Below, one piece after another: positions 6,360-64,000 of a stretch of DNA of 64,000 nucleotides. A program made the position numbers and the translations under genes. This stretch comes from a virus: positions 1 to 64,000 of IMG/VR virus record IMGVR_UViG_3300044680_000048. One strand, 5' to 3'. Each line of letters starts with the position of its first letter. Position 1 is the first letter of the stretch. Below the pieces are notes generated by a model. It saw nothing but the letters and a program-made list of their open reading frames with translations, had not been told where the DNA came from and made no database searches.

Positions 6360-6610
6360 AGAATAGAGAAAGAAGTCTTCTATGGCTTGCTGTTATTGCT
6401 TCTTGGACTGTTTCTATTTCTTACGCTCAGTCTGTTTCAGATATTAAGGAAGGGGAAATTAAACTTCTCCGGCACACTATTGATTTATATATTGATGGAA
6501 TAGTTAGAGCAGCAAGACTCTCTGAAATTAAGGTCTATCCAGAGGGTATTGATAATGAAGATATTCCCGAATACTTAGTTCGAACATTAAAGAAACAGAT
6601 AAAGAAATGA
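6356..6610 (+). CDS. small exported/membrane protein (84 aa)
   Basis: ATGA coupling; N-terminal hydrophobic LLWLAVIASWTVSISYAQS. Confidence 0.6.
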   Translation: MKNRERSLLWLAVIASWTVSISYAQSVSDIKEGEIKLLRHTIDLYIDGIVRAARLSEIKVYPEGIDNEDIPEYLVRTLKKQIKK

Positions 6611-6713
6611 AGATAAAGAAAGCCAAATTGCGGAAGATTGAGGTATCCCGCGGTACTTGACTTATCCGTTACATGTAGTATGGTAGAGTTACCACTTAAA
6701 TGGAGTAAAGGCA

Positions 6714-7043
6714 TTGGAAAACAACATAACAGTCCTCATCTATGAAGACTCATTAGAAGACTTGATAGAGGTTGAGGTTTCTCCAGGAGTCTTTAAAAGC
6801 CTTTGTACCATAACTAAGATAGCTAAGATGCCCTTCAGCCACTTTGCTAAAACCGTAGCTCAGTACCAGGGCAGAACGGAAGCTGAATCTTATATGACCT
6901 ATGCTACTAGGGGCTTAGGGGAAGAACTGGATGATAATTTCCCCTGTTTCTCCCATAGAGTAGAAGTTGAGACTGTTTCAATTTGTTTACCTAACATCAG
7001 AGTTCAGCGGGAACTCTTGACTTTGAAATTCGACAGTGTATGA
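6714..7043 (+). CDS. hypothetical protein (109 aa), TTG start
   Basis: ORF track; GGAG 8 nt upstream; TTGACT..TATGGT promoter-like sequence at 6657-6684. Confidence 0.55.
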   Translation: MENNITVLIYEDSLEDLIEVEVSPGVFKSLCTITKIAKMPFSHFAKTVAQYQGRTEAESYMTYATRGLGEELDDNFPCFSHRVEVETVSICLPNIRVQRELLTLKFDSV

Positions 7044-7072
7044 TATGAATTACAAAACGGATGGGAGGCATT

Positions 7073-7273
7073 ATGGATGTCATACAAATTAAAGATGTAA
7101 ATAAGTTCGAATTTATGAATAAACTACTGAGGAAACCTAAAAATGAAAACCCTAATACACAAAAGAAAGATGATCGGAACCAAACAATCCAAAAGTTACA
7201 AACCTATGAAGGAACAACTCCAAGAAGTAGAAGCTTCTATCGAGCAAATGCTTTGGAACAGACTGGAAGTTAA
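7073..7273 (+). CDS. hypothetical basic protein (66 aa)
   Basis: GGGAGG 4 nt upstream of ATG 7073; C-terminal third overlaps the next ORF in another frame. Confidence 0.4.
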   Translation: MDVIQIKDVNKFEFMNKLLRKPKNENPNTQKKDDRNQTIQKLQTYEGTTPRSRSFYRANALEQTGS

Positions 7274-9763: not shown

Positions 9764-10942
9764 ATGACTAAGATTAAAAAGTTGACCAACTGTCAAGAAC
9801 AGGATATGTTAATTTATAGAGAAATATGGTTAGATCAAGGAAGATCTACCGCTCCTCTAGACCTGTTAAGGGTTCAAGATTCTGTAAATGATTTATATTC
9901 TTTAATTGATCTAGAGGCTCCTGCTTTAGTCCATTGCCAGAGTCCTTGGCAAATGGCTTATATGGTTGCCAGTTTTAAGAAAATAGGCAAATTTGAAGGG
10001 AATAATCTAAGGAATAATCTATGGAATAATCTAGGGAATAATCTAAGGAATAATCTAGGGAATAATCTAAGGAATAATCTATGGAATAATCTAGGGAATA
10101 ATCTAGGGAATAATCTAAGGAATAATCTAAGGAATAATCTATGGAATAATCTAGGGAATAATCTAAGGAATAATCTAGGGAATAATCTAAGGAATAATCT
10201 ATGGAATAATCTAAGGGATAATGAATTAGACAAAGAGTTCGCCCAATTTGCAAAAGATTCACATAATTATTGGACGTTCTATTCTCAGTGGTACTTATAC
10301 TGGCTTTCTTTTTATGACTTTCCCCGCTCTATTGGAATTAAATATACGGAAGAAGAGAATAAACAGTTAGACATTTGGCTGGAAGTTTCCAGGTCTGTAT
10401 TTGGGTGTGCAACCTATGAGGGCATCTGTTTTGTTTGTGAACGTCCAACTACTTTAACTGTGGACGCCCAAGGAAGATTGCATAATGAATTAGGACCAGC
10501 TTTAGCCTTTTCGGACGGATATGAGTTATATTATTGGCATGGTATTCAACTCTTGCCGGAAGATTATTCTAAACCTCTTGAAGTAAAGAGAATTGATAAT
10601 GAATCTAATGTAGAAGTTAGAAGAGCATTAATTGAAAAATATGGTCAAGCTAAATATCTCTTAGACTCAGGAGCGGAAAAGCTTCATGAAGATGACTTTG
10701 GAGTACTTTACCGGAAACAGTTAACTGGAGATGAGTCGATCTTTATGGTAAAAGTAGTAAATAGTTCGCCGGAACCAGATGGAAGTTTTAAGGATTACTT
10801 CTTAGGGATTGATCCCAAAGCTTATAGGGATGCTAGTAAAATAACCGCTAAAGCAGCAGTAGCTAGTACTTGGAGATATGAAGGAAATACGGAATATGTT
10901 TTCCCGAATCCTGAAGATTATATTCCTCTAGTAGAGACTTAG
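9764..10942 (+). CDS. repeat protein: N-domain + 18 x NNL[R/W/G] tetrapeptide repeats + conserved C-terminal domain
   Basis: 392-aa ORF, AGGAG 10 nt upstream. The C-terminal region (CERP..LHNE.GPAL.FSDG..YWHG...NVEVRR..IEKYG..) recalls, from memory, a bacterial family of unknown function with period-4 repeats. Confidence 0.8.
   Translation: MTKIKKLTNCQEQDMLIYREIWLDQGRSTAPLDLLRVQDSVNDLYSLIDLEAPALVHCQSPWQMAYMVASFKKIGKFEGNNLRNNLWNNLGNNLRNNLGNNLRNNLWNNLGNNLGNNLRNNLRNNLWNNLGNNLRNNLGNNLRNNLWNNLRDNELDKEFAQFAKDSHNYWTFYSQWYLYWLSFYDFPRSIGIKYTEEENKQLDIWLEVSRSVFGCATYEGICFVCERPTTLTVDAQGRLHNELGPALAFSDGYELYYWHGIQLLPEDYSKPLEVKRIDNESNVEVRRALIEKYGQAKYLLDSGAEKLHEDDFGVLYRKQLTGDESIFMVKVVNSSPEPDGSFKDYFLGIDPKAYRDASKITAKAAVASTWRYEGNTEYVFPNPEDYIPLVET
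10001..10216 (+). repeat. 18 tandem 12-nt units AATAATCTA[A/T/G]GG
   Basis: Read directly: 11 of 12 nt are invariant in all 18 units and only position 10 varies. Order is R W G R G R W G G R R W G R G R W R; 60-nt higher-order copy 10001-10060 = 10121-10180. Confidence 0.97.
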
Positions 10943-12054: not shown

Positions 12055-12984
<930 letters not shown>

Positions 12985-22712: not shown

Positions 22713-22966
22713 TCATCTAATCCTCTATAAAATTTCATCGCTATTCTCTTGATTTCATGTTCTTTATGTTCAGGGTAAAGATCAGATAGAAGGGCATTCA
22801 TACAAAAATATACAATATAACACCCCTTCATGATCTTCGGATCTTCATCTACATAAAAATTAAGATTCCGGTCCATGTAAAATCTACATTCTATAGGACT
22901 CCCGGCTTTGCGGTAAGCATCCATAAGATTATTATAGATCTCAGTTTCTAATGTACTCTTTATCAA
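22709..22966 (-). CDS. hypothetical protein (85 aa)
   Basis: ORF track. Confidence 0.6.
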   Translation of the reverse strand: MIKSTLETEIYNNLMDAYRKAGSPIECRFYMDRNLNFYVDEDPKIMKGCYIVYFCMNALLSDLYPEHKEHEIKRIAMKFYRGLDE

Positions 22967-23399
22967 TGAAGACTTCTCCGTTGAGGTGGTCTATTTCGTG
23001 TATGATACAGCGGGCAAGAAGTCCATCAGTAGATAATTGGTGAAGCTGTCCACGAAGGTCTTGGTACTTTACAAATATAGAGGAACTCCTCTTAATGTCA
23101 AGGTATATTCCGGGAAAACTTAAACAACCTTCCCGCCCAACCTCCTCAATAGTAGAAAAAGAACAAATCTCAGGATTAACCATAACTCCACTGAAGTTAG
23201 GCGGAACATCTACGACTATAACCCTCAAAGATTTTCCAACTTGAGGGGCGGCAAGACCTAAACCCTTATTGTCAAACATTACACTGAACATACCTTTTAC
23301 TAGAAGACGTAGATGTCCGTCAAACTCAGTGATAGGTTTAGCAATTTTCTTAAGAATAGGATCGGTAGATTTAACTAGTCTAAAGGTACTCATCAACAT
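22941..23399 (-). CDS. def: peptide deformylase
   Basis: All three PDF motifs are present: GLGLAAPQVG, EGCLSFPG, HEIDHLNG. Confidence 0.9.
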   Translation of the reverse strand: MLMSTFRLVKSTDPILKKIAKPITEFDGHLRLLVKGMFSVMFDNKGLGLAAPQVGKSLRVIVVDVPPNFSGVMVNPEICSFSTIEEVGREGCLSFPGIYLDIKRSSSIFVKYQDLRGQLHQLSTDGLLARCIIHEIDHLNGEVFIDKEYIRN

Positions 23400-24479: not shown

Positions 24480-24583
24480 TATCCCTCATCTATTTGAACA
24501 GGTTTTGCCTAGTATACCAAATAATGACTAGTAACATTACAATGAACGTAACCATTATTACGGTCAAGGTTAAATCATCCATC

Positions 24584-25018
24584 TTAAATCATTGTCCTAT
24601 TAAAGAGTTGAAAGTCTTGAAGTCTTCTTTCGTGGATAGAAGCAATTCCCTTATCAAGGGAGAACCATTTATTGATATTAGTCATGTCTTCCAACATACC
24701 AGACTTTAGTAGTTTTGTCAACCCTACGTTGAATAGAACATCAGCTAAGGCATTCCATTGATTTTGATTTAAGGGGACCGGAACCACCTTAGATAATTCT
24801 ACATCAACTTGAAGGATATCTTTATTAAATATTTCATAAACTTTCTGGTCATTAAGGGTAGCGGAAAGCATCCAACCCTCTGCGGGAAGAACTATATAAT
24901 GCCCAATTCCTATAGAGTGCCCCTTATTGTCTTTATAGGCTTCATATCTCTTCTTCTCGAAAGAAGCAATAAAATCTTTGCCGGATTGATCTGTATTCAT
25001 TTGTATGTAACTCCCCAA
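24584..25018 (-). CDS. T4-type lysozyme (GH24) endolysin
   Basis: FIASFEKKRYEAYKDNKGHSIGIGH matches the catalytic E...D...T/S-IGIGH core of GH24. Confidence 0.8.
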   Translation of the reverse strand: MGSYIQMNTDQSGKDFIASFEKKRYEAYKDNKGHSIGIGHYIVLPAEGWMLSATLNDQKVYEIFNKDILQVDVELSKVVPVPLNQNQWNALADVLFNVGLTKLLKSGMLEDMTNINKWFSLDKGIASIHERRLQDFQLFNRTMI

Positions 25019-27249: not shown

Positions 27250-27443
27250 TTTCTATACTCATCCATATTAATAACATTCTCTTCCGGTCGGACTATTACT
27301 ATTTCATTTACTACAGAGGCATCTACTAGCTCATAAAGAAGGAGGGAAAAGATCTCCTTATTGTAGATTGAATCTTCATCCAGTGTAACAGATTCTAGGA
27401 GTAAAGGGAGCTGTAATCTAAGATCCTTTAATCTAACCTTCAT
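27246..27443 (-). CDS. hypothetical protein (65 aa from ATG 27443)
   Basis: The track's longer start (27530) would overlap rmlB by ~100 nt; the internal ATG overlaps by 11 nt. Confidence 0.45.
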   Translation of the reverse strand: MKVRLKDLRLQLPLLLESVTLDEDSIYNKEIFSLLLYELVDASVVNEIVIVRPEENVINMDEYRK

Positions 27444-28404
27444 CAAAGTAGCTGGTAGCAAAAGCCTTCTTATACCATTCGAGGAGTTCCGGAACACTTT
27501 CTTCAAGGGTGTACTCTGGTTTCCAACCAAGGTTCCTTAGCTTACTACTGTTGACAAAATAACGTAAGTCATAACCTGGTCTATCTTTCACAATTTTGAT
27601 GAGGTTAGAGAATCCGAACAACTCTACTACTTCTTGGGGAGACTTTTCGGCATTAGCAGAAACATTGTAGACTTCTCCGGCTTTCCCTTTCTCTATAACA
27701 GTAAAGATGGCGGAACAATGATCATAAACATGGAGCCAGTCTCTTAAAGCAGGAGTTTCAAAAATGGTAATCTCTTCTCCGGCAAGACCTTTCTTGATGA
27801 TAGTAGGAATTAACTTATCCTGTTGCCGGGTGCCAAAATTATTAGAACAGCGGGTAATTCTTACATCTAAACCATAAGTCTTATGGTAAGAAAGGGCAAG
27901 AAGATCACTAGCTGCTTTACTAGCAGAGTAGACAGAGGAAGGGTTAAGAATTTGGTCTTCATCAAAACCTAGTTCCTTGAGTTCACTACTCCAGTAGGAA
28001 GAATTACTAGACGTGCTATAGCTTCCATATACTTCATCACTCGAAACAATTATTAAAGGAATCTTAAATTCTTTAGCTATTTTACAGATACGGGAAGTAG
28101 CTAAGTAGTTAGTATCAAATAGTTCTGGGTCATCTATAGATGTGTCTACGTTAGACAAAGCTGAAAAATGAGTGATTAATTCCGGATTGTGTCCTTTACT
28201 TAAGATATCCGTATGGATAGAGAGGCATTCCACATTGGCAAAAATTTGATCACATTTAGCTTTTCTATTTTCATCTAGAAGGTTGCTTCCACAGCTTCCC
28301 TCTAACATTCCATCTACGCCCACAACTTTATGTCCAAGTTTGAGGGCAACATCTACAAAGTGGGAACCAATAAAACCAGCGTTTCCAGTAACTAATATTT
28401 CCAT
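27433..28404 (-). CDS. rmlB: dTDP-glucose 4,6-dehydratase-like SDR
   Basis: GNAGFIGSH Rossmann motif, SSDEVYG, YSASKAASD (YxxxK), CSNNFG, RDWLHVYDHC, DRPGYDLRY, LGWKP. Confidence 0.85.
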   Translation of the reverse strand: MEILVTGNAGFIGSHFVDVALKLGHKVVGVDGMLEGSCGSNLLDENRKAKCDQIFANVECLSIHTDILSKGHNPELITHFSALSNVDTSIDDPELFDTNYLATSRICKIAKEFKIPLIIVSSDEVYGSYSTSSNSSYWSSELKELGFDEDQILNPSSVYSASKAASDLLALSYHKTYGLDVRITRCSNNFGTRQQDKLIPTIIKKGLAGEEITIFETPALRDWLHVYDHCSAIFTVIEKGKAGEVYNVSANAEKSPQEVVELFGFSNLIKIVKDRPGYDLRYFVNSSKLRNLGWKPEYTLEESVPELLEWYKKAFATSYFDEG

Positions 28405-48690: not shown

Positions 48691-49071
48691 ATGAAACGAC
48701 CGGAAGGTTACTTTGGAAAACTACTAACAGTAGATTTTCTAGGTATAAGATCTGAACTCCTAGTAGATAAAGAGTTAATGGCTGAGGTTTCCCGTCAAGT
48801 TATTAGTCTTGCGGCAATGACCATAATACAAGGTCCAGACATTTTCTATTATGAGCACCCAACAGACCCATTAGAGAGTGGACTTACCGGATGTACTATC
48901 CTCTCAGAAAGTCACTTCACATTTCACTCGTTCCAGAGAAGCGGGTTCCTAACCCTAGATCTGTATAGCTGTTCAGATTTTATTCCGGAAACAATTATAA
49001 GTTACCTAAAGGGTGTATTTAACCCAACTTCAATGGAAACTAATGTTCACCTTAGAGGGAAGGGATACTAG
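48691..49071 (+). CDS. speD: S-adenosylmethionine decarboxylase proenzyme (small pyruvoyl type)
   Basis: ..GLTGCTILSESHFTFHSF...LTLDLYSCS.. aligns with the ..VISESHLTIHTWPE...IDLFTCG self-cleavage and active-site core. Confidence 0.8.
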   Translation: MKRPEGYFGKLLTVDFLGIRSELLVDKELMAEVSRQVISLAAMTIIQGPDIFYYEHPTDPLESGLTGCTILSESHFTFHSFQRSGFLTLDLYSCSDFIPETIISYLKGVFNPTSMETNVHLRGKGY

Positions 49072-52760: not shown

Positions 52761-53954
52761 CTAAGAATGCCCTGTGAGCAAACAGCGGCTCTGAGCAAGG
52801 GGGTCACATAACGATATTAAATCGAACAGAACACTCAAGTGATAGAGGTTAGTTACTGGCCTTTCCACTAAAAAACTTCCAGGCTTGCCTTGCATATGGA
52901 ACTTAGCCAGTTGAGGAAGCGAAGCACGGAAGAACATAGTAGTTCCGGTAGGCATCTGCATATCTCTGATGAAGGGGATAGCAAGTCCGTTATTGTCTTC
53001 GTAGATCATTTGGATATCGCCAGGCTCAAGTCCTAGTCCGGCAAGTCTCTTTACGAGTACTTCGTCATAGCCCATTTTTGCCAGCGGCTCATTGCCGGGG
53101 TAGCGGTTGATCATCAAGTTACGGATAACAGGGATCTGGGTGTTATTGGTTAAAGCAACAACATCATTTAGAGCGTCAAAACCGAAGAAGGCAGCTAACT
53201 GTGTGATAGCTTGAGCAATCAAAGCATCAGTGAGGTTTCCCCCGCCTACTGCAATTGGTCCTACGGTTGATCTCGTTACCATACCACCAAGAGATGGGAT
53301 ATTAGGGAGAGCTTCATCGGTATTTTCCAGAGCACTCAAGAGCAGAGGGTTCATGGTCCGTTCCATACGGATCATTGCTTTCTGGATTTGTGCTTGGAGT
53401 TCATTCCGGCGGTAAGGTGATTGAGCAGCAAGTTCTTCCGCCATAAAAGAAACGTTAATCTGTTGACCGATAGCCATCAGGGTATTAGTTCTTTCCGACA
53501 AGACTGACTGTTGAACTGCTGGGAGATTACCTTCTACGTTGAAAGCTGACAATTGGTCATTACCAATGGTTTCTTCCGGAATCCGGATCTGATAATCAGT
53601 TGCCGGGAAAGAAGGTTTCTTTTTCAGGATGTTAAGGAATTTGGCTTCCGTATTAACAATCTGAGCAATATAAGGATAGAGACTTACGATTCTTACTGGA
53701 CCAAGGTCTACTCCGGTAACGTCTTTATTAACTACCATAGTAGAGAATGCGTCCGAGGAGTCGGTATTCATTCTTACCGGCATATTCTTTAGAAGACGGC
53801 TAACCTTTTCACGGGTTTGGCTATCTTTGCACTCTTGGTACAAGATAACATCGATAGGTTGCGGATCAGCTTTCTGAATCGGAACCAGAGCTTGGTTCCC
53901 CGCACTCTTGTTTTGAAGATTAGATACCAGATCTTCTGCGCCAAATTGAGACAT
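52761..53954 (-). CDS. major capsid protein candidate (397 aa)
   Basis: Strong AAGGAG RBS; directly downstream of the protease/scaffold gene; higher GC/codon bias typical of a highly expressed gene; positional inference. Confidence 0.65.
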   Translation of the reverse strand: MSQFGAEDLVSNLQNKSAGNQALVPIQKADPQPIDVILYQECKDSQTREKVSRLLKNMPVRMNTDSSDAFSTMVVNKDVTGVDLGPVRIVSLYPYIAQIVNTEAKFLNILKKKPSFPATDYQIRIPEETIGNDQLSAFNVEGNLPAVQQSVLSERTNTLMAIGQQINVSFMAEELAAQSPYRRNELQAQIQKAMIRMERTMNPLLLSALENTDEALPNIPSLGGMVTRSTVGPIAVGGGNLTDALIAQAITQLAAFFGFDALNDVVALTNNTQIPVIRNLMINRYPGNEPLAKMGYDEVLVKRLAGLGLEPGDIQMIYEDNNGLAIPFIRDMQMPTGTTMFFRASLPQLAKFHMQGKPGSFLVERPVTNLYHLSVLFDLISLCDPLAQSRCLLTGHS

Positions 53955-53964
53955 TAATAACTCC

Positions 53965-56139
53965 TTACTGTTGGGCCCAATTGGCCATGATGAAACTGTC
54001 TAGTGTGTTTGCCGGTTGAGTAGCTTTATTTACTTCAACAGCTTTGTTCTGGATCTCAAGAACTTTTTCTACAAGTTCTTCCGCACTGGTGGAAGCAGCG
54101 GCTTCTACAGCCTTACTAATTGATTCGACCATTTTGGCAAGCTCCCCAATCAGTTTTGATTGATCAGCCTGGATTGATTTCTGTGCTTCTACAGCAGCGA
54201 CAAGCTTGTTGACTTTTTCAACAGCTTCCTTGTTAGAAGCAACAAGAGACTTTATTGTTAGGTTGGTTTCCGGAGAGAGTGAAGCTTCTACAGATTTACC
54301 AAGCTTTACGGAAGTCGGATCTTTATCTTCCGATTTTCCTAGTTTGACGGAAGTAGGGTCACTATCTTCGTTAGTAATTTTCTTAGTGTCGTTATCACCG
54401 TCGCGGTCTTCACCGCCAACACCCTCATCACCATCAGGTTCTTTGTGGGCCTTAACACACTCATCATCTTCTTCAGACTTCATGCACTCATCTTCTTCAG
54501 CAGAAGCTTTAGTGGAAACATCTTCGTACTTAGAAGGATCAGCATCACCGGAACCCGGATTTAGCTTAACCGCATCTTTTTCTTCTTTTGCCACTGATTT
54601 ACTATCCTGTATAGTGTTAACGTTAATTATTGTAGCGGAGGATTTATTTTGTGTTAAATTATCTCTCAAAGAAGAGGCATGAACATTTAGAAGTGTCCCA
54701 AAAGCCTCATAAGAATTAACTGCCCCTTCTGGCAATTCCATATTATGTGTCCAGATGGTAGGGCGTTCAGCAGATTTAGCAGCTTCAAGACGATGATGAC
54801 CATCAATCATATAGATATCTCCATTGCGGGAGATAGTCATTCCACCATCAAAATTTCCTTCTTTAACAAATTGTGCAACTTTTTCTGCGTCTACGGCAGA
54901 CTGAGTTGGTTTAACTTGTTCCGGACGAACCTGAACAAGGGGAAGACCCTTATATAATCCTGGATTACTAATCAATGCCTTAACAACAGAAAACTCAAAT
55001 TCACTTTTAAGAAAGTCTGGATACAGGGTTTTATTGATGGATTCTGTTAAAGATTTCTGTTCAGGAGGTCCGGAAGAATCTATTTCTCTTTTCCAAGCAG
55101 CCTTAATCTTAGATTTTATATGAGAAAGTTCTTCAGAGGAGTACTCTGAAGAATTCCTTTCTTGATGAATGTAATTCCAAGCTGCTCTGATGTGCTCTTC
55201 TGTATCTATAGGATAACGAGGTTTTTTATCTTCCTGGTAACCAGGATCTGCGTATTCTACATCCCCATAAGGTTTTTTCGCTTTCATCATTGCTGCTTCA
55301 GGAGCATTATCACACTCATGAGCATTATCTTCCGGTTCATCTCTATAGGCTTCTGGATCAGTAACTCCACCACCATTAGGGGGAGAAATAGTAGCTTTAT
55401 CCTCAAGGGCTTTTTGTTGAAGAGATTTGATTGCGGTTTTCATTCGAGCGGGAACATTTACAACCGATCTTTCTAGGTAGCGGGCAACTTTATTAATAGT
55501 TACTGAAACAGGTTTGCCGGATTCATCCACCTGTCCCGGTTCATGTGGGCAGGCATAAGAATAAATAGACATGTTACAGGAACTACAAACTTTATGGTTG
55601 GGGTCTACTAAAATACCTACAGAAATAGAACGAACAGTACCGTTTTTTATTCCTTTTATAAGAGGAGCATGGTAATCCTCAAGAGGAATGCCCCATGTTT
55701 CTCTAGGACCTTCTTTAGTCATCCTAGAAGAAAGGCAGATACCTAATGGAGGGAGATTATTAAGATTATGTGAATGATCCATGAGGACGGGAGTAGCTGG
55801 TCCACCGTCTACTATGTCCTGTTCAGCATCTTTGGAGAACTTATCTCCTTGTACATCAACCTCATTTCCAAGGCCTAGAACGTTAATATTACGTAAAACC
55901 ATCCACTGGTGGGCTTCTTGGGGCACAACAGAAAATTCATTAATGAGTTTCATTTCTTCCATAGAAGGAGATAAACTTTGATTCTCCTCTACCATTGTCT
56001 TAGCAGCTTTAAGAGTTCCGGTACTTCCCATACTCTTATACATAACTAAGCCGGTCTCTTCTTCAGGTTCCGGCAAAGACTTCTTGATAGAAACTGCTCT
56101 TACTTCTTCCGGAAGGACTTTTTTAAATTCTTCTACCAC
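53965..56139 (-). CDS. prohead protease (HK97/S78-like) - ParB/Srx-like domain - acidic linker - coiled-coil scaffold fusion (724 aa); GTG start uncertain
   Basis: Protease block ..PVLMDHSHN..PPLG...GTVRSISVG; YADPGYQ..KPRYPIDT..HIRAA motif; ParB-like ..VRPEQVKPTQ...IDGHHRLEAAK (about 54740-54950); Asp/Glu-rich linker; helical C-terminus. Confidence 0.72.
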   Translation of the reverse strand: MVEEFKKVLPEEVRAVSIKKSLPEPEEETGLVMYKSMGSTGTLKAAKTMVEENQSLSPSMEEMKLINEFSVVPQEAHQWMVLRNINVLGLGNEVDVQGDKFSKDAEQDIVDGGPATPVLMDHSHNLNNLPPLGICLSSRMTKEGPRETWGIPLEDYHAPLIKGIKNGTVRSISVGILVDPNHKVCSSCNMSIYSYACPHEPGQVDESGKPVSVTINKVARYLERSVVNVPARMKTAIKSLQQKALEDKATISPPNGGGVTDPEAYRDEPEDNAHECDNAPEAAMMKAKKPYGDVEYADPGYQEDKKPRYPIDTEEHIRAAWNYIHQERNSSEYSSEELSHIKSKIKAAWKREIDSSGPPEQKSLTESINKTLYPDFLKSEFEFSVVKALISNPGLYKGLPLVQVRPEQVKPTQSAVDAEKVAQFVKEGNFDGGMTISRNGDIYMIDGHHRLEAAKSAERPTIWTHNMELPEGAVNSYEAFGTLLNVHASSLRDNLTQNKSSATIINVNTIQDSKSVAKEEKDAVKLNPGSGDADPSKYEDVSTKASAEEDECMKSEEDDECVKAHKEPDGDEGVGGEDRDGDNDTKKITNEDSDPTSVKLGKSEDKDPTSVKLGKSVEASLSPETNLTIKSLVASNKEAVEKVNKLVAAVEAQKSIQADQSKLIGELAKMVESISKAVEAAASTSAEELVEKVLEIQNKAVEVNKATQPANTLDSFIMANWAQQ

Positions 56140-56203: not shown

Positions 56204-56282
56204 AGTAGGGTAGGGGAGTCTGGTCGTCCCCGCAAGGCTCATAACCTTGAGATCGTGAGTTCAAATCTCACCCTTGCAACCA
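56204..56282 (+). tRNA. tRNA with CAU anticodon (Met; Ile2/initiator not excluded), encoded CCA
   Basis: Hand-folded cloverleaf. Acceptor 56204-10/56272-78 has 6 of 7 pairs with an A1xA72 mismatch. D stem GGGG/CCCC. Anticodon stem CAAGG/CCTTG with loop CTCATAA. Variable loop AGATC. T arm GTGAG-TTCAAAT-CTCAC. Discriminator A plus CCA. Confidence 0.78.
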
Positions 56283-56284
56283 AT

Positions 56285-56608
56285 TTAGATAAAAGAACTA
56301 TCATGCCTATCTATTAGGGACATAATTTCTTCTTGGGTGGCATCTGGATGATGGGGGATAGAGGTTTCCCGTCTCCATACTTCCGGATGATTAGGGTCAA
56401 TGGGATTAACTCCATTCCCATAAACCACTATTACATGATTATCTAGGTTAGGGTGTTTACTAACACTCATTATTTGGGCTTTCTTTTGCCCTCTATATTG
56501 AGGAGTAGAAGTTCTTTCTATGACTCTTGTGGCAATCAAATCTATATCATCATCGGTTAATTCATACCGGAAGAGATTCCATAACCACTCTTTCACTTTT
56601 TTAAACAT
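56285..56608 (-). CDS. hypothetical protein (107 aa)
   Basis: ORF track. Confidence 0.55.
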   Translation of the reverse strand: MFKKVKEWLWNLFRYELTDDDIDLIATRVIERTSTPQYRGQKKAQIMSVSKHPNLDNHVIVVYGNGVNPIDPNHPEVWRRETSIPHHPDATQEEIMSLIDRHDSSFI

Positions 56609-56610
56609 AT

Positions 56611-57033
56611 TTAGAGGGCATCTCCCAATAAGGTTACTGTTGATGCCGTAGTAGCATCAGCACTTCTAAGAGTAACCTTGATCCACCCACCTGTCTGAGC
56701 TAGGTTAACATTGAAGACAGTATTAACTGTTTGAGGACTTCCATCATTAGCTACTATAGGATTAAGGACAACAGTTTGTCCAACACTGTCATAGGCAGGA
56801 GTTATGGGATTCCCGCCATTAACATAAAATCCAGGTTGTCCATTAGGGACCGCCGGTCCAAAACCATTAGTAACATTACAGGTAAAACCCGTAATAGAAG
56901 AAGTGGAAGCAAAGGTTATAGAAGTTTCTACCTGAAGTTCATTGAAGACAGTGGCATCTATTTCTATAATAAGAGTTCCGGAAGCAGCTACTGAATAGGT
57001 TCCATAATTCGTGTAATTAGAATGCGAAGCCAT
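56611..57033 (-). CDS. beta-rich small virion protein (140 aa), distant paralog of 62840..63244
   Basis: Shared AASG.., ..N...G.G.., W[IV][KR][VF]....GD C-terminal pattern. Confidence 0.55.
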   Translation of the reverse strand: MASHSNYTNYGTYSVAASGTLIIEIDATVFNELQVETSITFASTSSITGFTCNVTNGFGPAVPNGQPGFYVNGGNPITPAYDSVGQTVVLNPIVANDGSPQTVNTVFNVNLAQTGGWIKVTLRSADATTASTVTLLGDAL

Positions 57034-57179
57034 TAATAACTCCCTACATAGAAGGCAGTTGTTTGGGAACCAAAGCCTAAACTATACCTTTCTCCGGAAA
57101 CATCCATATTTCCCGCTCCGTCATCTACCCATTGAACAGTTTGACTATCAGAAGAACCACCGGAAAGAAATACCAACAT
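57033..57179 (-). CDS. hypothetical small protein (48 aa)
   Basis: Hand translation; TAATG coupling to the 56611..57033 gene. Confidence 0.35.
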   Translation of the reverse strand: MLVFLSGGSSDSQTVQWVDDGAGNMDVSGERYSLGFGSQTTAFYVGSY

Positions 57180-57221
57180 ATTAAACCTCAAATCTTAAAC
57201 TATGTAGAATTTTAGCTTTAG

Positions 57222-58061
57222 CTAAAAGCTGCCCCTTAAGGTTTCATAGGCTAACTCATATCCATGGTTTATTAGGGACTTCCGGTCCTTCTTATAGTTA
57301 AAGTCTATTAAATTACGCTGAATATTACTCTCTGCCTTTACTACTATAACTTTAACCTCTCTAAACCGAGAGTTGGTAGATACTATGGAGTTGATTGTCT
57401 CAACAAATTTAAGTTCTTTCGATATGGAGATATAAGACGGTAATGATAAACCAGCCTGCATTACATCTAAAATACTGTTTATCTTGTAACAAGTCTCCGG
57501 CACTTGAGGTTGAAACAAGACAACAACATCGGCGCCCATTTCTACTGCCTGAGAAACCGAGAAGTTATTACTTAGCCCACCATCTAGGTATTGTTGACCA
57601 TTAAGAGAAACAGGCTCAAATAAAACTGGAGGTGAAGCAGATGCTCGTAAGAACGCCGGCAAGTCTTCTCCTAACTCATGAACGTCTTTAGTAACACCGC
57701 TCCAATCTGTAAAATTAGTAACGTTAATTAAGAATTTCTTAGGGTTTCCGGCAACTTTACCATTATCTATATATTTCTTTAATGTTCTTTCCAGAGGAGA
57801 AGAGTCGTATAAACAGAACTTACCGGAAAGAAAGTTACCAAATGGGTTTAAACTATAAACATCCGGATTCTTAATATTCATCCACAGATCTAGCATTTCA
57901 TCTATTCTATTTTGATGAAGAAAAAGACCATTCAGGCTACCAACGGAAGTTCCATGAAGAACGTCATAAGTAAGTCCTAATTCATGCCAAGCTTTAATCA
58001 TCCCGGCTTGTAGGATGCCCATTGAACCGCCGCCGGAAAGACATAGGTGGATATTAGACAT
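57222..58061 (-). CDS. patatin-like phospholipase
   Basis: All four patatin blocks are present: SGGGSMG (oxyanion hole), GTSVG (GxSxG nucleophile), ASASPP, YLDGG (catalytic Asp). Confidence 0.85.
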   Translation of the reverse strand: MSNIHLCLSGGGSMGILQAGMIKAWHELGLTYDVLHGTSVGSLNGLFLHQNRIDEMLDLWMNIKNPDVYSLNPFGNFLSGKFCLYDSSPLERTLKKYIDNGKVAGNPKKFLINVTNFTDWSGVTKDVHELGEDLPAFLRASASPPVLFEPVSLNGQQYLDGGLSNNFSVSQAVEMGADVVVLFQPQVPETCYKINSILDVMQAGLSLPSYISISKELKFVETINSIVSTNSRFREVKVIVVKAESNIQRNLIDFNYKKDRKSLINHGYELAYETLRGSF

Positions 58062-58494
58062 TGATTAGAGGAATGTTGTATTGCACAGCAAGTGATTCCG
58101 CCATGGTTATTACTGTAGGAGTCAACCAAGTGGGATTGGTTGCTTTTAGCCCCGTCCAATACTGAGAAATTGCTAGTGGATAGGTCGTAATAAATTTGTC
58201 TACTAGCGGGAAGGCTTGAGAGAGATTTATAGCGGCTTCGGTTAGTCCTTGAGCCAGCAATCCCTGAAATAAAGATCCCTGGAACATGTCGGGATTTGGG
58301 ACGGCGACGTTAGTCGGAATGTAGATCAGCACTCCATTCACGATTTTGTAATTCGTGATATTCTGGTCGCCGTTATACGACATGAACGGCGCCCAAGTGT
58401 CTTCCGCTGATGGCGTATCAACACCAGGCACGATGGTTGCTTGGTTGTTTGTGCCGGTGCAATTTGTTTGTCCGGCGAATTGAATTACGTTCAT
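58054..58494 (-). CDS. hypothetical protein (146 aa) downstream of the fibre; possible fibre accessory/chaperone
   Basis: GGAG RBS; the N-terminal two-thirds share the GC-richer composition of the fibre C-terminus. Confidence 0.55.
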   Translation of the reverse strand: MNVIQFAGQTNCTGTNNQATIVPGVDTPSAEDTWAPFMSYNGDQNITNYKIVNGVLIYIPTNVAVPNPDMFQGSLFQGLLAQGLTEAAINLSQAFPLVDKFITTYPLAISQYWTGLKATNPTWLTPTVITMAESLAVQYNIPLINV

Positions 58495-58497
58495 TAT

Positions 58498-61400
58498 TTA
58501 CTCCGCATCCATAAAGACTGACTTTGTAGCTATGTTGACAGCCGTTGTGCTTAGTGTGGTGATCGTCTCGACATTGCACGCAACACCTGATATCGGGACA
58601 TCTGTCGTTGTAGACGCAGCTAGTACTGACGCACCGCCGTTAGTACTGATGTAGAAACTTACTGTGCCAGGTATAGAGCAATCAACCGCCATTGTGTATA
58701 CGGTGTTGTAATTTATTGGGACCGTCGTAGTGATCACGTTTTGCGCTGAGCCTGTGCCAGTTACACAACGCCAGTACTGAGTAGCATCTACTGCGGGCGA
58801 GTAGCGAAATGCGGCCACGCTAACTGCGGTCCCAGGTGTATTCGTTCCTGTGCAATATGCAGCACCACCGCCTAGCATCCCCACCCAGATCCGGCAATTC
58901 TGAATGTCTGTAGAACTTGATCCGGTCCTAATAGTCGCTATATATCTCGGTCCTGGGTACGTATTATTGAATACTCCCCAGTTTGCATTTGCTTGCGAAG
59001 AGCTACCGGCGTAGGTGCCCGAGGTAGTTGAAGTAGCAAAGTTGACTGCGAAATCTAATCCAGCAGTACCCCACAGCGTCGTAGCAGTGCCCGAATTTGT
59101 GGGACTAACTGTGTTCAAACCTCCCGAAAAATATACAGAAGTCGTTGCGACTGCTGGATAACTATAGGTTCCCCATCGCCGCGGACGAGCGCAGGTGATT
59201 GACGGGAACATATAACTATTAACCCACGCACCCGTCCCAGATCCAGTATTTTGAATTGTCTGCCCGATGTTGCCACCGGATGGTAAGCCGCCTCCACCTC
59301 CACCAGAGGCTGTAGAGGCAATAGTTATTGTGCTATTAGTAGAATTAAGAGTTAATGTAGTATTGGACCCGGCAACTAATGCATTAGTTAAAGCTGAGTA
59401 TATATCAGTAGCTACAGGTGCTCTAAAAGTAGGCTTGTTTGCAGCTCCTGTTGTAGGTCCAAATAACCCTGTTCCTGAAGCTTGATTAATTAGAGAAAGT
59501 TGAAGAGTTCCGTTAGCTGTAAGAGGAGAATTTGTTGCTGGAGAGGTAAAAATTACATTATCTGTAGTTAATCCAACAGAGGTTAAAGCCCCAGAAGCAT
59601 AATTACTTAAGGTTATAGAATTAGCCGCATTACTAACTGTAATTCCTACACCAGTTATATTAGCCGGACTATAAGATCCTCCAGAAGTAGATCCTATAGG
59701 TATTTGACCATCTGTAGGGACAGTAGAAACTCCAGTTCCACCTGAGTAGACACTGGCTATCTGAGGCTTGATAGTTCTCCAACCACTAATTCCATCACTT
59801 ATAACGCCCATGACTTGGAATTTCAGCATGGTTTTGGATGTAGAACCGCCATCAAAGGTATCGGTTCCATTAGTAGTTACAGTACAAGCATTAGTCCCAG
59901 TAACAGTATTATTATTAAAATAAAATACTTCTGCTACAACACTTGAAGCAGCCGGGAGAATCAAGGTTACAGGAGCAGTTGAGGCATCCATATTCTGGTA
60001 GCCCGGAGAAGTATTGGTTAAAGTTGCACTAACTGTAGCTGAAGCGAATCCTTGGAATAAATTAACATAAGCCGGGAGTCCATTAACTACTCCTATTGCT
60101 TGAGAAGTTAAACCAACTCCTAAAGCAGACTCTACATTGGCATTTGTGAAGTAAGGAATATCTCCCATAGTTCCTACTGCCGAAAGATTAATCTGTGGAG
60201 TTGAAGTTGAATTGGTTACATTAACTGCAATTGAAGGAATAGAACTACTGGCAGATACAGAACTTACTGTGCCGGAACCTCCTCCTGAAGCAGTAGAGGC
60301 AATAGTAATAACACTTCCATTATTAGTTAGAGTAATATTATTTCCGGCAGCTAGGGCTCCAGTAAGATCACTACCCGTAAGGTTCCTAAATGTAGGAGCT
60401 GCATTACCACCACTTGCTGGACCGGCAAAGATAAGTCCTGAGGCTTGATTTACAAAAGTTCCTGTTAAAGTTCCAGAATTTATAACAGGAGAGCCTGAAA
60501 CAGTAAATATGGTATTAGGGAGACTTAATGCTACAGAGGTAACTGTCCCATTGGTATTTGAGCTTCCGGCATTAGAAATAATGTTTAAAGTATTTCCATT
60601 GTTTGTTAATGAAAGGTTACTTCCACTAACTGTAATTGCATTAGTTAGGTCACTTCCTACTATATTGCGATAAATTGGAGAATTTGGACTTCCAGAAGCT
60701 GGACCACTTAAGAAAGTACCAGAGGCTGCACTTGATAGATTAAAACTTAAAGTTGGCGTAGTATTTGAAGTGCTAACTGATGTTGTAAAAATTGGATTGG
60801 CAGTGCCCGCTGAAAAAGAAGTTACTGTCCCACTAGTATTAGAAGAACCAGCAGCGCTGATAATAACATTAGAACCATTGTTATTGACTGTAACATTAGT
60901 TCCGGCTTGAATAATTGATCCTAAATCATATCCAACTAAATTCCTGTAAGAAGGACTTCCCACAGCCCCACTTGCAGGTCCAGATAAAATTTGACCAGAA
61001 GCTGTATTGGATAGACTAAAACTTAAAACTGGAGTAGTAGTTGAATTAGCAACTGAAGTTGTGAACACGGGATTAGCCGAACCAGCCGAAAAGTTTGTAA
61101 CGGTTCCTGAACTAGAGCCACTTCCAGCTACTGCTGAAATAGTTAGAACTCCTCCACTATTATTAAAGTTTATATTAGCCCCAGCAGCAAGACTTCCAAT
61201 TAAATCATTACTATTTAATGTCCTATAAGTAGGAGCAGTAGAACTACCTGAAGTTGGACCAGCTAAAAAGGTTGCCGAAGCTGCATTGGAAATAGTATAA
61301 GAAATGGAAGGTGCAGTAGTAGGGTTAGAAACCGCACTTGTAAATATAGGAGCTAGGTTTCCAGAAGAGACAGAAGTGACTGAACCATTCCCGCTCGATG

Positions 61401-62838
61401 TTGAAGATATTATTATATTTCCATCGGAATTTCCAATGTTTATATTACTTCCAGCAGTTAAGCTATTAGGAACCCAACCTGTGGCAGATCCTATTAACAG
61501 TTGTCCAGGACTATTACCTTGAGGAAGATCTGTTAAGACCATTGCTCGAAAATTAGGAGTTCCAGAAGTGGAACTTGGTGAAGCAAATATCTGTCCAGAA
61601 GATTGTGAAGATAAGGTGTGAGAAATTACGGGAGTAGTAGTAGGGTTAGTTGTACTAGAAGTAAACAGTCCGGTAAGTCCTGAGTCACTTACGGAAGTTA
61701 CTGAACCTGAAGCATTATTAGTAGCAGTAATTGTTATCTGAGAACCATTATTGCTTAAACTGATCCCAGAACCATTATTGAAGTTTCCGAAAATATCATT
61801 ACTGATAATTCCCCGATAACTTGGGGCTCCAGCAGTGCCAGAAGCAGGTCCGGCAAGAAATTGTCCTGAGGCTTGATTTGTTAGAGAAAAAGTAGTACTA
61901 GGTGTTGTAGTTGAAGTAGCTGTGGTGGAAGTAAAGATAGGAGAAAGGTTGCCAACAGCGACACTTGTTACTGACCCACTAGCTAAACCAGTTGCGGAAA
62001 TAGTTCCACCAGAAGATATGTTTATATTACTTCCAGCAGTTAAAGTAGGAACTACATCAGAAGCTGTTAATGGTCTAAATCCAGGAGTGGCATTTCCACC
62101 AGAGATTGGTCCAGCATACACCTGCCCTGAAGCTTGACTAGTAACAGTAAAGGTTAAATTAGGTGTGCTGGTGGGTGTAGCTACGGATGTAGTAAAAAGC
62201 CCACCAGCATTTCCAGAAGTGAAACTACTTACTGTTCCACTACCACCAGAAGAGGCAATGACTAGGCTACTTCCCACTAAGGTTAGAGTAATATTTGAAC
62301 CCGCAGAGAGGGCAGAAATTAAATCTGAACCAACATGTAATCTATAGTATGGAGTTGCCGCAGACCCTGTTACAGGTCCTGCTAAAAACTGACCAGAAGG
62401 AGCAGAAGATAAGAGAAAACTTAATGCTGGTGTGGAAGTGGGATTGGAAACTGAAGTGGTGAATATAGGATTTGCTATTCCAGCCGAAAAGTTTGTTACT
62501 GTTCCTAATCCAGCTCCAGAAGACCCAATAGTTAATGTATTGGTCCCAGCAGTTAGAGAGATTCCGGCACCTGCTACTAACTTGAAAGAATTAGGAAGGT
62601 TGGACGTTTCATTAGCTTGAGTTACATAGGTGCCGGAAGGATAACCTCCACCAGCAGCCGAGACTGTTAAATTTCCACCTGAGAAGGTTAACGTGATATT
62701 ACTTCCGGCAGCAATAACACTTGCTCCGGTAAGAGTAGAGTTAGAAGAAGTTAATAGATAAGGAGCATTCGTAGGCGCTCCACCAGAGCTTCCTCCGGTA
62801 GATGAACTAAAGAATATTGGGGGAAAGAAAAACTTCAC
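58498..62838 (-). CDS. giant repeat fibre protein (1446 aa), GTG start
   Basis: At least 9 tandem ~88-100 aa modules (G[ST]V[TS][SN][VF]...IFT[TS]..[ST]TP..[SF]...Q/A-ASG..[FL].GP.SG....P.[YF]R......D......AG.N[IV]...) plus a 262-aa distinct C-terminal domain. Confidence 0.8.
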   Translation of the reverse strand: MKFFFPPIFFSSSTGGSSGGAPTNAPYLLTSSNSTLTGASVIAAGSNITLTFSGGNLTVSAAGGGYPSGTYVTQANETSNLPNSFKLVAGAGISLTAGTNTLTIGSSGAGLGTVTNFSAGIANPIFTTSVSNPTSTPALSFLLSSAPSGQFLAGPVTGSAATPYYRLHVGSDLISALSAGSNITLTLVGSSLVIASSGGSGTVSSFTSGNAGGLFTTSVATPTSTPNLTFTVTSQASGQVYAGPISGGNATPGFRPLTASDVVPTLTAGSNINISSGGTISATGLASGSVTSVAVGNLSPIFTSTTATSTTTPSTTFSLTNQASGQFLAGPASGTAGAPSYRGIISNDIFGNFNNGSGISLSNNGSQITITATNNASGSVTSVSDSGLTGLFTSSTTNPTTTPVISHTLSSQSSGQIFASPSSTSGTPNFRAMVLTDLPQGNSPGQLLIGSATGWVPNSLTAGSNINIGNSDGNIIISSTSSGNGSVTSVSSGNLAPIFTSAVSNPTTAPSISYTISNAASATFLAGPTSGSSTAPTYRTLNSNDLIGSLAAGANINFNNSGGVLTISAVAGSGSSSGTVTNFSAGSANPVFTTSVANSTTTPVLSFSLSNTASGQILSGPASGAVGSPSYRNLVGYDLGSIIQAGTNVTVNNNGSNVIISAAGSSNTSGTVTSFSAGTANPIFTTSVSTSNTTPTLSFNLSSAASGTFLSGPASGSPNSPIYRNIVGSDLTNAITVSGSNLSLTNNGNTLNIISNAGSSNTNGTVTSVALSLPNTIFTVSGSPVINSGTLTGTFVNQASGLIFAGPASGGNAAPTFRNLTGSDLTGALAAGNNITLTNNGSVITIASTASGGGSGTVSSVSASSSIPSIAVNVTNSTSTPQINLSAVGTMGDIPYFTNANVESALGVGLTSQAIGVVNGLPAYVNLFQGFASATVSATLTNTSPGYQNMDASTAPVTLILPAASSVVAEVFYFNNNTVTGTNACTVTTNGTDTFDGGSTSKTMLKFQVMGVISDGISGWRTIKPQIASVYSGGTGVSTVPTDGQIPIGSTSGGSYSPANITGVGITVSNAANSITLSNYASGALTSVGLTTDNVIFTSPATNSPLTANGTLQLSLINQASGTGLFGPTTGAANKPTFRAPVATDIYSALTNALVAGSNTTLTLNSTNSTITIASTASGGGGGGLPSGGNIGQTIQNTGSGTGAWVNSYMFPSITCARPRRWGTYSYPAVATTSVYFSGGLNTVSPTNSGTATTLWGTAGLDFAVNFATSTTSGTYAGSSSQANANWGVFNNTYPGPRYIATIRTGSSSTDIQNCRIWVGMLGGGAAYCTGTNTPGTAVSVAAFRYSPAVDATQYWRCVTGTGSAQNVITTTVPINYNTVYTMAVDCSIPGTVSFYISTNGGASVLAASTTTDVPISGVACNVETITTLSTTAVNIATKSVFMDAE
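59290..62505 (-). repeat. tandem ~270-290-nt coding modules of the fibre gene
   Basis: Repeats are evident in the protein and in the periodic antisense shadow ORFs of the track. Confidence 0.85.
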
Positions 62839-62839
62839 C

Positions 62840-63244
62840 TTACGGAATATCTCCTACTACTTTTATTGTGGCAGGGTTTGCCGGATCAGGATTAGAAATT
62901 ACAAATCTTACCCACCTAGGAACCATGTAACAAAGTACTTCAATAAAGTCTGTATTGGTTAAACTAGAGCCGGAAGAAAGTTGATAAGTAGTTGCGCCTG
63001 TCTCATATATAGGTACGTTACTTCCTCCTATTACTATAGGAAGGGTTCCATTAGCGGTTGGGTCACTATTGCCGCAACCTGCATAACAATTTACTACCAG
63101 ACCAGAAGCCAGAAGAGAGGCATAGGTAGCACTTACGCCAATTGTTACTGGACTATTTTGGAAATTAAAAGTGTCTACATCGAAAGTATAACTGCCGCTA
63201 GCTGCGAGAGTTGAAACAGGAACAATTATCTGAAAATTGGACAT
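62840..63244 (-). CDS. beta-rich small virion protein (134 aa), distant paralog of 56611..57033
   Basis: See paralog; immediately upstream of the fibre gene. Confidence 0.55.
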   Translation of the reverse strand: MSNFQIIVPVSTLAASGSYTFDVDTFNFQNSPVTIGVSATYASLLASGLVVNCYAGCGNSDPTANGTLPIVIGGSNVPIYETGATTYQLSSGSSLTNTDFIEVLCYMVPRWVRFVISNPDPANPATIKVVGDIP

Positions 63245-63401: not shown

Positions 63402-64000
63402 CTAGATATCTTGGTATGGAAGAGTATCAATTACAGCTTCTTCCCCTACTGGTAGTTTCATAGGAGTTGCCGGAGGTACTACTTCAGAAGCAACTGAGAT
63501 ATTGGGAAGAACCCTTAGAGGTTTCTTACCAGCAGTTCCACCTAGAGGAGGAAGTTTAGCTATTTCAGTTCTGGCTTCATCAACAGACATAAATCCATCC
63601 AATTTACCAATATCAACTAAGGACTTAGCCATATTCATAGTAAAGGAATTGAATCTATCCCTTGCCCGAATCTGTACGTCTTTTATTCCGGCTCTGGGAA
63701 GGATTTCAGAATTAATGAAATTATCAACTATCTTAACTACTTGATAGATAGCTTTATCAAAGATATCAGCAGCTTCATCAGCAAGAGAAGCAGCATGGTA
63801 TTGCTGATTAGCATTAGTAATAATTCCTAAACGTTCATGGGGGACACCCATTACATGAGCAACCTGTTTAGCAGCTTTATCAGAAGTTTTGTGGAAGGCT
63901 CCATCTAAGTCAGCCAGATTATTCATCTGTTTAATATCACGGGCACCCGTAAGGACTACAGTATCAAATCCGGCTCTGGCTCCAGAATGGTTTGCCCGAA
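63402..64000 (-). CDS. portal protein, C-terminal part (ORF continues beyond the window end)
   Basis: The frame stays open upstream of Met 63926 to position 64000; ..HVMGVPHERLGII...Y....L.....F......V...F.N.EILP resembles the HK97-type portal C-terminal region. Confidence 0.6.
   Translation of the reverse strand, partial: RANHSGARAGFDTVVLTGARDIKQMNNLADLDGAFHKTSDKAAKQVAHVMGVPHERLGIITNANQQYHAASLADEAADIFDKAIYQVVKIVDNFINSEILPRAGIKDVQIRARDRFNSFTMNMAKSLVDIGKLDGFMSVDEARTEIAKLPPLGGTAGKKPLRVLPNISVASEVVPPATPMKLPVGEEAVIDTLPYQDI

Follow-up and report, generated by a model that had tools for sequence, protein, structure and literature searches.

A complete patatin-like phospholipase carried as accessory cargo between the fibre and head genes of a phage, and its possible role in lysis

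The DNA examined here, referred to as the window, is the stretch of 64,000 nucleotides (nt) from positions 1 to 64,000 of the virus record IMGVR_UViG_3300044680_000048 in the IMG/VR database. On its minus strand, an ATG-started open reading frame (ORF) at 57222..58061 encodes a protein of 279 amino acids (aa) that is a patatin-like phospholipase, and every sequence and fold test applied gave this assignment. The gene is accessory cargo that is resident in the phage backbone, and it is not a constant component of the virion module. A role in lysis is the best supported of the functions considered because, in the closest relatives, the patatin gene is paired with genes for lysozyme, GH73-like proteins, amidase and small membrane proteins. 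We propose, as a tentative reading that we hold to be somewhat short of probable, that the protein would be a late, soluble hydrolase of membrane lipids that assists envelope breakdown at lysis. The interest of the finding is mainly at the level of the subfamily, where patatins recur beside lysozyme or GH73-like partners, and in the idea, which can be tested, that the envelope is disrupted by lipolysis.

Sequence and fold of the protein

The 279 aa protein matches the Pfam family PF01734 (Patatin) with an E-value of 8.5e-30 and a score of 104.8 bits, where the cut-off is 27.7. The match covers residues 6-172 and positions 1-190 of the 191 in the profile, and is far above chance. Block I (GGGxxG) is present as G10-G-G-S-M-G15, block II (GxSxG, the nucleophile elbow) as G37-T-S39-V-G41, block III (ASxxxP) as A140-S-A-S-P-P145, and block IV (DGG, which bears the Asp of the catalytic dyad) as D160-G-G162. 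Across 14 aligned members of the subfamily, G10, G12, G37, S39, G41, S141, A142, S143, P145, D160 and G162 do not vary, and G15 hardly does. An earlier reading made from the letters of the window, here called the sequence-only reading, had described a complete patatin with four catalytic blocks; motifs, family score and fold all confirm this, and the assignment is to the Patatin family and not to another hydrolase. The enzyme is complete and apparently catalytically competent, with a Ser39-Asp160 dyad and a predicted lipid acyl-hydrolase activity.

The patatin domain occupies the entire 279 aa, making this a single-domain, minimal enzyme. No signal peptide, transmembrane (TM) segment or extra domain was found in it; the N-terminus is not hydrophobic and the first motif begins at residue 10. 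Neither Pfam nor the structural model revealed a virion-attachment or ligand-sensing domain, and this, together with a patatin domain that fills the whole protein, supports a role in lysis. PHROGs holds no family for the window patatin or for its small neighbours.

An AlphaFold2 model built on the subfamily alignment (pLDDT 87.5, pTM 0.89) was compared with known structures using Foldseek. The best match was PlpD (E 6e-15); CapV/CapE and potato patatin came next, with E-values for the whole set ranging from 6e-15 to 1e-10 and TM-scores of 0.6-0.73 against PlpD, CapV/CapE and Pat17. A sequence-profile search of the PDB gave the same ranking (PlpD, 1.8e-22; VipD, ~1e-10; CapV, 5e-8). The best matches, PlpD and RssA (PDB 5fqu and 5fya; NF007623), have the four blocks, the Ser-Asp dyad and a catalytic domain of similar size in common with the window patatin, which therefore appears to belong to a PlpD/RssA-like branch and is predicted to be a soluble lipid acyl hydrolase. 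It is not a member of either named group. RssA is the best-scoring named family, but the score of 55.2 bits is well below the cut-off of 272 for NF007623, and membership of the RssA equivalog was rejected. PlpD, a type Vd protein, has a signal peptide, a POTRA domain and a 16-strand beta-barrel translocator, whereas the window protein has the patatin domain only, and membership of the PlpD-type autotransporters was also rejected. Furthermore, PlpD and RssA are bacterial, whereas the window patatin is phage-encoded, and the contigs on which its subfamily was encountered here were all phage-like or uncharacterised metagenomic ones.

Size and distribution of the subfamily

A word-indexed search of 5.8 billion proteins recovered approximately 14 close relatives (33-43% identity), all of them metagenomic. 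Searched exhaustively with HMMER, 1.84 billion cluster representatives yielded 42,007 matches to the superfamily. Of these, 317 had E <= 1e-30 and approximately 100, with E <= 1e-45, were full-length proteins of 260-300 aa; the size of the subfamily is accordingly given as ~100-300 clusters at 50% identity. The maximum identity to the window protein within the subfamily is 44%; the closest relatives are 33-44% identical to it and 33-47% identical to one another. When 185,579 species genomes were scanned with the single protein, a scan that reaches close relatives only, the only matches were 22-28% identical and came from metagenome-assembled genomes of Fusobacteriaceae, Flavobacterium and Demequinaceae. 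Among GenBank phages, just 16 of 50,697 records gave a patatin match using tblastn.

Patatins encoded by phages are already known from phage WO, from RM378 and from lists of auxiliary metabolic genes (AMGs) in viromes. To these the present case contributes a defined subfamily of minimal patatins (~280 aa) that recur beside genes for lysozyme, GH73-like proteins and small membrane proteins.

Gene neighbourhoods of the relatives

An association with lysis genes is found in two contigs from lambda-like siphophages (L002 and L035). Here, the gene for a GpJ-type tail protein is followed, after further genes, by a 490 aa ORF that is a fibre by position, and then by ORFs of 151 aa, 105 aa and 112 aa (the last with two weakly hydrophobic helices), a Phage_lysozyme gene and the patatin gene, which has a 4 nt overlap and ends the operon. 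The 151 aa ORF is a homologue of the 146 aa ORF that lies next to the patatin in the window (31% identity, E 3e-8). Judged from gene order, the patatin of these contigs is placed as in a lysis cassette, following the endolysin where lambdoid phages have their spanins.

The patatin gene was also found in six loci from large phages (L003, L005, L006/7, L008, L037 and L038), with patatins that share <50% identity. All six encode RecA/UvsX, and some also encode ribonucleotide reductase, Cpn10 or Thy1. In all six, the order is patatin, an ORF of ~125-190 aa resembling GH73/Glucosaminidase, and RecA. The GH73-like ORFs (L003, 10830-11345; L005, 8858-9427; L006, 8458-8979; L008, 8759-9268; L037, 8861-9364; L038, 2463-2843) overlap or abut the patatin gene, except in L038, where the two are ~110 nt apart. 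In several of these loci, small single-TM proteins are encoded directly upstream of the patatin. An Amidase_2 or lysozyme gene lies ~1-5.5 kb away in five of the six; none was found in L038, which is an 8 kb contig with 1.5 kb upstream. The small membrane ORFs beside the patatins of L005, L011 and L012 were compared with PHROGs, and nothing useful was found.

In L010, an Amidase_2-like gene is located two genes upstream of the patatin. In L004, the patatin follows a Pel9A-like beta-helix protein and a 153 aa TM protein, and a K1-lyase_C protein encoded nearby matches the fibre of the window. Considering all genes no more than three positions from a phage patatin, 6 of 126 matched a peptidoglycan-hydrolase family (Glucosaminidase, four; Phage_lysozyme, one; Amidase_2, one), and all six belong to the close subfamily.

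The large-phage loci also bear on a different function, in which the patatin would be an AMG that remodels host lipids, freeing fatty acids or reorganising membranes to supply energy or precursors and playing no part in lysis. In those phages, as in RM378, the patatin lies among DNA-metabolism genes. The phage of the window carries further metabolic or host-takeover genes, for a peptide deformylase, an AdoMet decarboxylase and sugar-nucleotide enzymes. Giant viruses commonly encode patatins. In viromes from the environment, patatins have been listed as putative AMGs (PMC9469726). However, lipid remodelling does not account for the recurrence of the patatin beside small membrane proteins and genes for lysozyme or GH73-like proteins, and an early, unregulated cytoplasmic phospholipase would harm a cell that the phage still needs. 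The window patatin is, moreover, in a fibre and late gene run. We consider this function unlikely.

A possible role in lysis

If the patatin acts at lysis, its expression would, by position, be late along with that of the fibre genes, and the protein would accumulate in the cytoplasm, as it has no export signal. Once the holin and endolysin had breached the envelope, it would reach the membrane phospholipids and cleave their acyl esters by phospholipase A or lysophospholipase activity. Collapse of the inner and/or outer membrane would thereby be sped up and the progeny released. We infer the enzyme activity, its timing, the substrate and the role in lysis alike. The backbone-like composition of the gene and the lack of a Shine-Dalgarno motif (both described below) make coupled late expression plausible.

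A lipolytic enzyme is known to finish lysis in mycobacteriophages. LysB works after the endolysin and cuts a lipid linkage of the outer envelope, and lysB follows lysA. The enzyme belongs to the cutinase-like alpha/beta hydrolases and has a Ser-Asp-His triad, and its substrate, mycolyl-arabinogalactan, is specific to the mycolata. The likeness to the patatin is functional analogy only. The patatin of L002 and L035 comes directly after the endolysin, as lysB comes after lysA, but the fold and family of LysB are unrelated to those of patatin with its Ser-Asp dyad, and the window patatin is not adjacent to an endolysin gene.

The analogy to the spanins (Rz/Rz1) is one of position. In L002 and L035, the patatin is the gene after the endolysin and closes the lysis cassette, and it would act at the same step, on the last membrane barrier. 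Spanins act by membrane fusion, whereas the patatin would hydrolyse lipid and has neither a TM segment nor a lipobox. The patatin may be an enzymatic substitute for spanins that provides a lipolytic third step in Gram-negative lysis, which we consider more likely than carriage in the virion (see below). Were a lysis role correct, it would add a third, enzymatic route to disruption of the outer membrane alongside spanins and disruptin-type peptides, and the subfamily would be a source of compact membrane-active enzymes.

The closest precedent is in the Wolbachia phage WO, where the patatin gene (gp45) is at the edge of the tail module and a 'patatin-based lytic cassette' has been proposed to act in lysis or entry (PMC9203015, PMC3173496). 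The window patatin is likewise at the border of a tail and fibre module, and in both cases the role is a proposal. In phage WO, however, genes for a holin-like TM protein and an ankyrin protein are adjacent, and neither was found beside the window patatin in Pfam and TM scans. In addition, phage WO is argued to use the patatin because canonical endolysins are missing, whereas the phage of the window has a normal lysozyme endolysin. No WO record was among the phage-database matches at E <= 1e-3; whether that collection includes WO was not checked.

Several observations weigh against a role in lysis. The first concerns the window itself, in which a recognisable endolysin gene lies 32 kb from the patatin. 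This gene, at 24584..25018 on the minus strand, encodes a T4-type lysozyme (PF00959, E 4.4e-14; phrog_7, E 5e-16). No holin-like, TM, GH73-like, lysozyme or amidase gene adjoins the patatin. The adjacency to endolysin and holin genes that is general for a lysis cassette is found in L002 and L035, and loosely in the large-phage lineage, and not in the window. The suggestion in the sequence-only reading of a lysis accessory thus stands as the best supported of the three roles that it put forward, by virtue of the neighbourhoods of the closest relatives, and is weakened by the distance to the endolysin here.

The associations in the relatives are also open to question. The six large-phage loci represent one lineage, which reduces the number of independent associations to only about three. 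Their GH73-like partners match FlgJ weakly (E ~3e-4), and the catalytic Glu of FlgJ (in LETGWG) is replaced by R, K, M or A, so that these partners may not be hydrolases; they may instead be pseudo-enzymes or peptidoglycan-binding partners of the patatin. In L009, a 64 aa MazE/AbrB (SpoVT)-like ORF (5798-5992) overlaps the start of the patatin gene by 4 nt. A distant clade of IMG/VR patatins (25-31% identity; L011-L028), catalytically intact, is found in head-neck modules that are without lysis genes, in myovirus regions near genes for the head-tail adaptor, Neck1, tail terminator and sheath. Finally, no phage patatin with a tested function was found in the literature searched.

Two features of these loci are noted in passing. 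The arrangement in L009 is toxin-antitoxin-like and unlike every other context. Among L016-L028, a conserved ORF of ~200-230 aa without a Pfam family is always immediately upstream of the patatin in 12 loci (for example, L018, 2139-2792, and L016, 5379-5987).

Other lysis genes were sought in the window, and the results apply to the 64 kb examined of the metagenomic source contig, which has 111,990 nt. Searches for peptidoglycan hydrolases with tblastn and with hidden Markov models (HMMs) of lysozyme, amidase and the GH73-like partners found the distant endolysin only. A 30 aa single-TM ORF (MDDLTLTVIMVTFIVMLLVIIWYTRQNLFK; 24490..24582, minus strand), detected in a hydropathy scan directly after the endolysin gene, could be a small holin or a membrane partner. 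It was the only product of a search for spanins and holins by hydropathy and lipobox, and no convincing spanin was found. Four ORFs on each side of the patatin were scanned for TM segments; apart from a marginal hydrophobic stretch in the 134 aa ORF, there were none. A profile-profile comparison of the family of the 146 aa ORF with the GH73-like family was negative (probability 0.5%).

Relationship to the patatins of defence systems

Patatin effectors are established as membrane-killing executors in CBASS (cyclic oligonucleotide-based antiphage signalling systems). The patatin of the window could in principle be a toxic effector of this kind, acting in superinfection exclusion, abortive infection or addiction in the manner of CBASS CapV/CapE or of the toxin of a toxin-antitoxin pair. 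The patatin fold and catalytic blocks are common to CapV/CapE and the window protein (Foldseek E 1e-12 to 1e-10), PADLOC reported weak matches to phospholipase effectors (E 4e-9), and the antitoxin-type ORF that overlaps the patatin start in L009 would fit such a pair. However, CapV/CapE are ~50-80 residues longer, the sequence match to them ends at residue 170, and the window protein is without their extra C-terminal region. Its score against the NCBIfam model CBASS_lipase (NF041079) is 33.9 bits, where the cut-off is 200.

The surroundings of the gene also differ from those of a CBASS operon. No cyclase was found, as eight flanking ORFs examined using Pfam included no nucleotidyltransferase (CD-NTase-like) or sensor domain, and PADLOC found nothing in the four of these that it was applied to. 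CBASS lipase membership was rejected on these grounds, and with PlpD and not CapV the closest structure, the proposal in the sequence-only reading of a captured CBASS-type defence effector is not upheld. The scan of species genomes, with its reach of close relatives only, returned just the 22-28% identical matches, the G+C content and codon use are like those of the phage backbone, and the gene is in the late structural operon of an apparently lytic-type large phage. Taken with the family scores, these features make a toxic effector very unlikely, and assistance at lysis remains the reading that we prefer.

Position of the patatin gene in the window

The patatin is part of a run of minus-strand genes in the order 174 aa ORF, 134 aa ORF, 1446 aa fibre-like protein, 146 aa ORF, patatin, 48-52 aa ORF, 140 aa ORF and 107 aa ORF. 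Beyond these are a tRNA-Met gene on the opposite strand, a gene for a 724 aa protein and the gene for an SU10-type major capsid protein. The fibre gene (58498..62838, minus strand) ends 437 nt upstream of the patatin. Its product has ~9-10 repeats of ~90 aa, spaced at 87-94 aa, followed by a C-terminal domain of ~260 aa that may be receptor-binding. The protein matches phrog_9625, and in tblastn searches both the repeat units and the C-terminal domain matched annotated tail fibres of phiRSL1, Cylindrospermopsis phages and others.

Between the fibre and patatin genes is the 146 aa ORF (58054..58494, minus strand), which is associated with the fibre tip. The sequence-only reading had noted that the patatin gene overlaps this ORF by 8 nt, and the overlap is real: the start codon of the patatin gene and the stop codon of the 146 aa ORF lie within ATGTCTAA. 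No Shine-Dalgarno motif (GGAG-like) was found in the 20 nt before the patatin start, whereas motifs of this type are present at the fibre gene, the 146 aa ORF, the 140 aa ORF and the capsid gene. With the overlap, the missing motif makes translational coupling a reasonable conclusion, and translation of the patatin is probably coupled to that of the fibre-associated ORF. No terminator was found between the fibre and patatin genes in a scan of 55.9-64 kb, and promoter and terminator sites in this region were no commoner than in shuffled sequence.

The 146 aa ORF has no match in Pfam, PHROG, NCBIfam or PADLOC. Its AlphaFold2 model is poor (pLDDT 48.7) and a PDB profile search with its family returned nothing. 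A role as a chaperone or an assembly factor for the fibre is possible.

The patatin is accessory cargo

The composition of the region and comparison with other contigs separate the patatin from the fibre tip. An island of 45-55% G+C, in a background of 38-40%, extends over 58000..59300 and covers the C-terminal domain of the fibre and the entire 146 aa ORF, dropping exactly at the start codon of the patatin. The patatin gene has 38.3% G+C overall and 34.6% at third codon positions, which is the phage average, while the 146 aa ORF is an outlier at 46% and 49%, respectively. An otherwise unrelated 8 kb contig (L034) shares 509 nt (L034 3-511) with 58309..58816 of the window at 95% identity. The shared stretch consists of the last ~106 codons of the fibre gene (98% aa identity) and the first ~63 codons of the 146 aa ORF. 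Past it the sequences diverge, and there is no patatin in the remainder of the 8 kb of L034. The seam in G+C content and the match to L034 together indicate that the fibre tip and 146 aa ORF form a swapped host-range cassette, and that the patatin, across the seam, is part of the resident backbone. A receptor-binding cassette made up of the fibre tip and the N-terminal part of its partner ORF appears to have been exchanged recently.

Two related phages (L040 and L041) have capsid proteins that are 37-38% identical to that of the window. The order in L040 is a homologue of the 174 aa ORF, a homologue of the 134 aa ORF, a fibre homologue, a variable slot, a homologue of the 724 aa protein and the capsid gene, and L041 has the fibre, 724 aa protein and capsid homologues in that same order. 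The subfamily HMM found no patatin within 20 kb of either locus. As L040 and L041 keep the module order without a patatin, the patatin is not needed to build the virion. The sequence-only reading had placed the gene inside the virion gene block, and this holds for its location between the fibre gene and the head genes; as an accessory gene that is absent from L040 and L041 and separated from the fibre tip by the G+C seam, it is not a conserved component of that block. The position between the fibre and head genes appears to mark a hypervariable region for host-interaction cargo. In L040, this slot contains a 697 aa protein with a tailspike-like N-terminus (5158-7251), and in L041 there are three paralogous proteins of ~330 aa (2805-5817).

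The position beside the fibre raises the alternative of an entry lipase that travels on the fibre or close to it, perhaps via the 146 aa protein, and locally hydrolyses lipids of the outer membrane or of another part of the envelope during adsorption or genome delivery. The gene is within the fibre gene run and overlaps the ORF associated with the fibre tip, it is just downstream of tailspike or fibre genes in L004 and in L002/L035 too, and the distant clade is inside head-neck modules. The same slot in the related phages contains tailspike- or fibre-like proteins, as judged from N-terminal sequence and paralogy only. However, the patatin has no structural or adaptor domain, and L040 and L041 are without it. 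In L034, the fibre tip and 146 aa ORF occur together with no patatin, and the G+C seam leaves the patatin outside the cassette. Most close relatives carry the patatin among replication or lysis-type genes and not among structural ones, and no virion-borne phage patatin was found in the literature searched. We regard an entry lipase, the remaining role put forward in the sequence-only reading, as improbable, to much the same degree as lipid remodelling.

A specific form of virion carriage, in which the patatin would be a passenger recruited by the 146 aa protein that hydrolyses outer-membrane lipids at the site of attachment, is to our mind slightly more doubtful. If this is correct, tailed phages would have in the patatin an equivalent of the phospholipase A2 that parvoviruses carry in their capsid. 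For annotation, the lesson is that a patatin gene adjacent to a fibre gene should not by default be called a structural protein or a defence gene.

Other genes around the patatin

Upstream of the fibre gene are the 174 aa ORF (63402..63926, minus strand), the one with a homologue in L040, and the 134 aa ORF (62840..63244, minus strand), which is directly upstream of the fibre gene and is kept beside it in L040. Directly downstream of the patatin is the small ORF of 48-52 aa (57033..57191, minus strand), which has no TM segment, followed by the 140 aa ORF (56611..57033, minus strand). The 134 aa and 140 aa ORFs are weak paralogues (25% identity, E 3e-5 using BLASTP) and bracket the fibre-patatin block. 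The run closes with the 107 aa ORF (56285..56608, minus strand), beyond which is the antisense tRNA gene. The latter, tRNA-Met (CAT), is at 56204..56282 on the plus strand (ARAGORN; Rfam RF00005, 49.5 bits). It is thus antisense to the minus-strand late genes that flank it, and separates the fibre-patatin run from the head genes.

The 724 aa protein (53965..56139, minus strand), encoded just upstream of the capsid gene, contains DUF6582 and a weak ParB-like nuclease domain. Its C-terminal half is acidic and contains repeats, its position is kept in related phages, and shorter homologues of 420-451 aa are found at the same position in L040 and L041. The major capsid protein gene (52761..53954, minus strand) is 3.3 kb downstream of the patatin, and its product was identified as SU10 type by a match to PF17236 (31.9 bits, cut-off 24.1). 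Most of the 22 capsid homologues found also match PF17236. The closest (P0169, on a 47 kb contig) is 73% identical. PDB searches with the 724 aa protein and with the putative portal protein of L040 were uninformative.

Other features of the window

The phage looks like a lytic-type large phage. None of the 50,697 GenBank phage records contained DNA near-identical to the 52-64 kb region, and no match to the capsid protein or to a 1215 aa protein was found in the GenBank phages. Consequently, there is no cultured relative to guide interpretation. The best phage match for the peptide deformylase is to a Synechococcus phage (44%), which is not decisive for the host.

The auxiliary genes, which are host-like, comprise the peptide deformylase (22941-23399), the AdoMet decarboxylase (48691-49071), a sugar-nucleotide NTP transferase with a hexapeptide domain (19630-20727) and an enzyme of the GDP-mannose-dehydratase/epimerase type (27433-28404). 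The G+C content is raised (~44%) in the 18-22 kb region. A GCT-rich repeat of ~350 nt is present at 12502-12855, within an ORF at 12055..12984, and a 12 nt tandem repeat (18.7 copies, 92% matches) at 9999-10222 lies within a DUF6745 ORF at 9764..10942.

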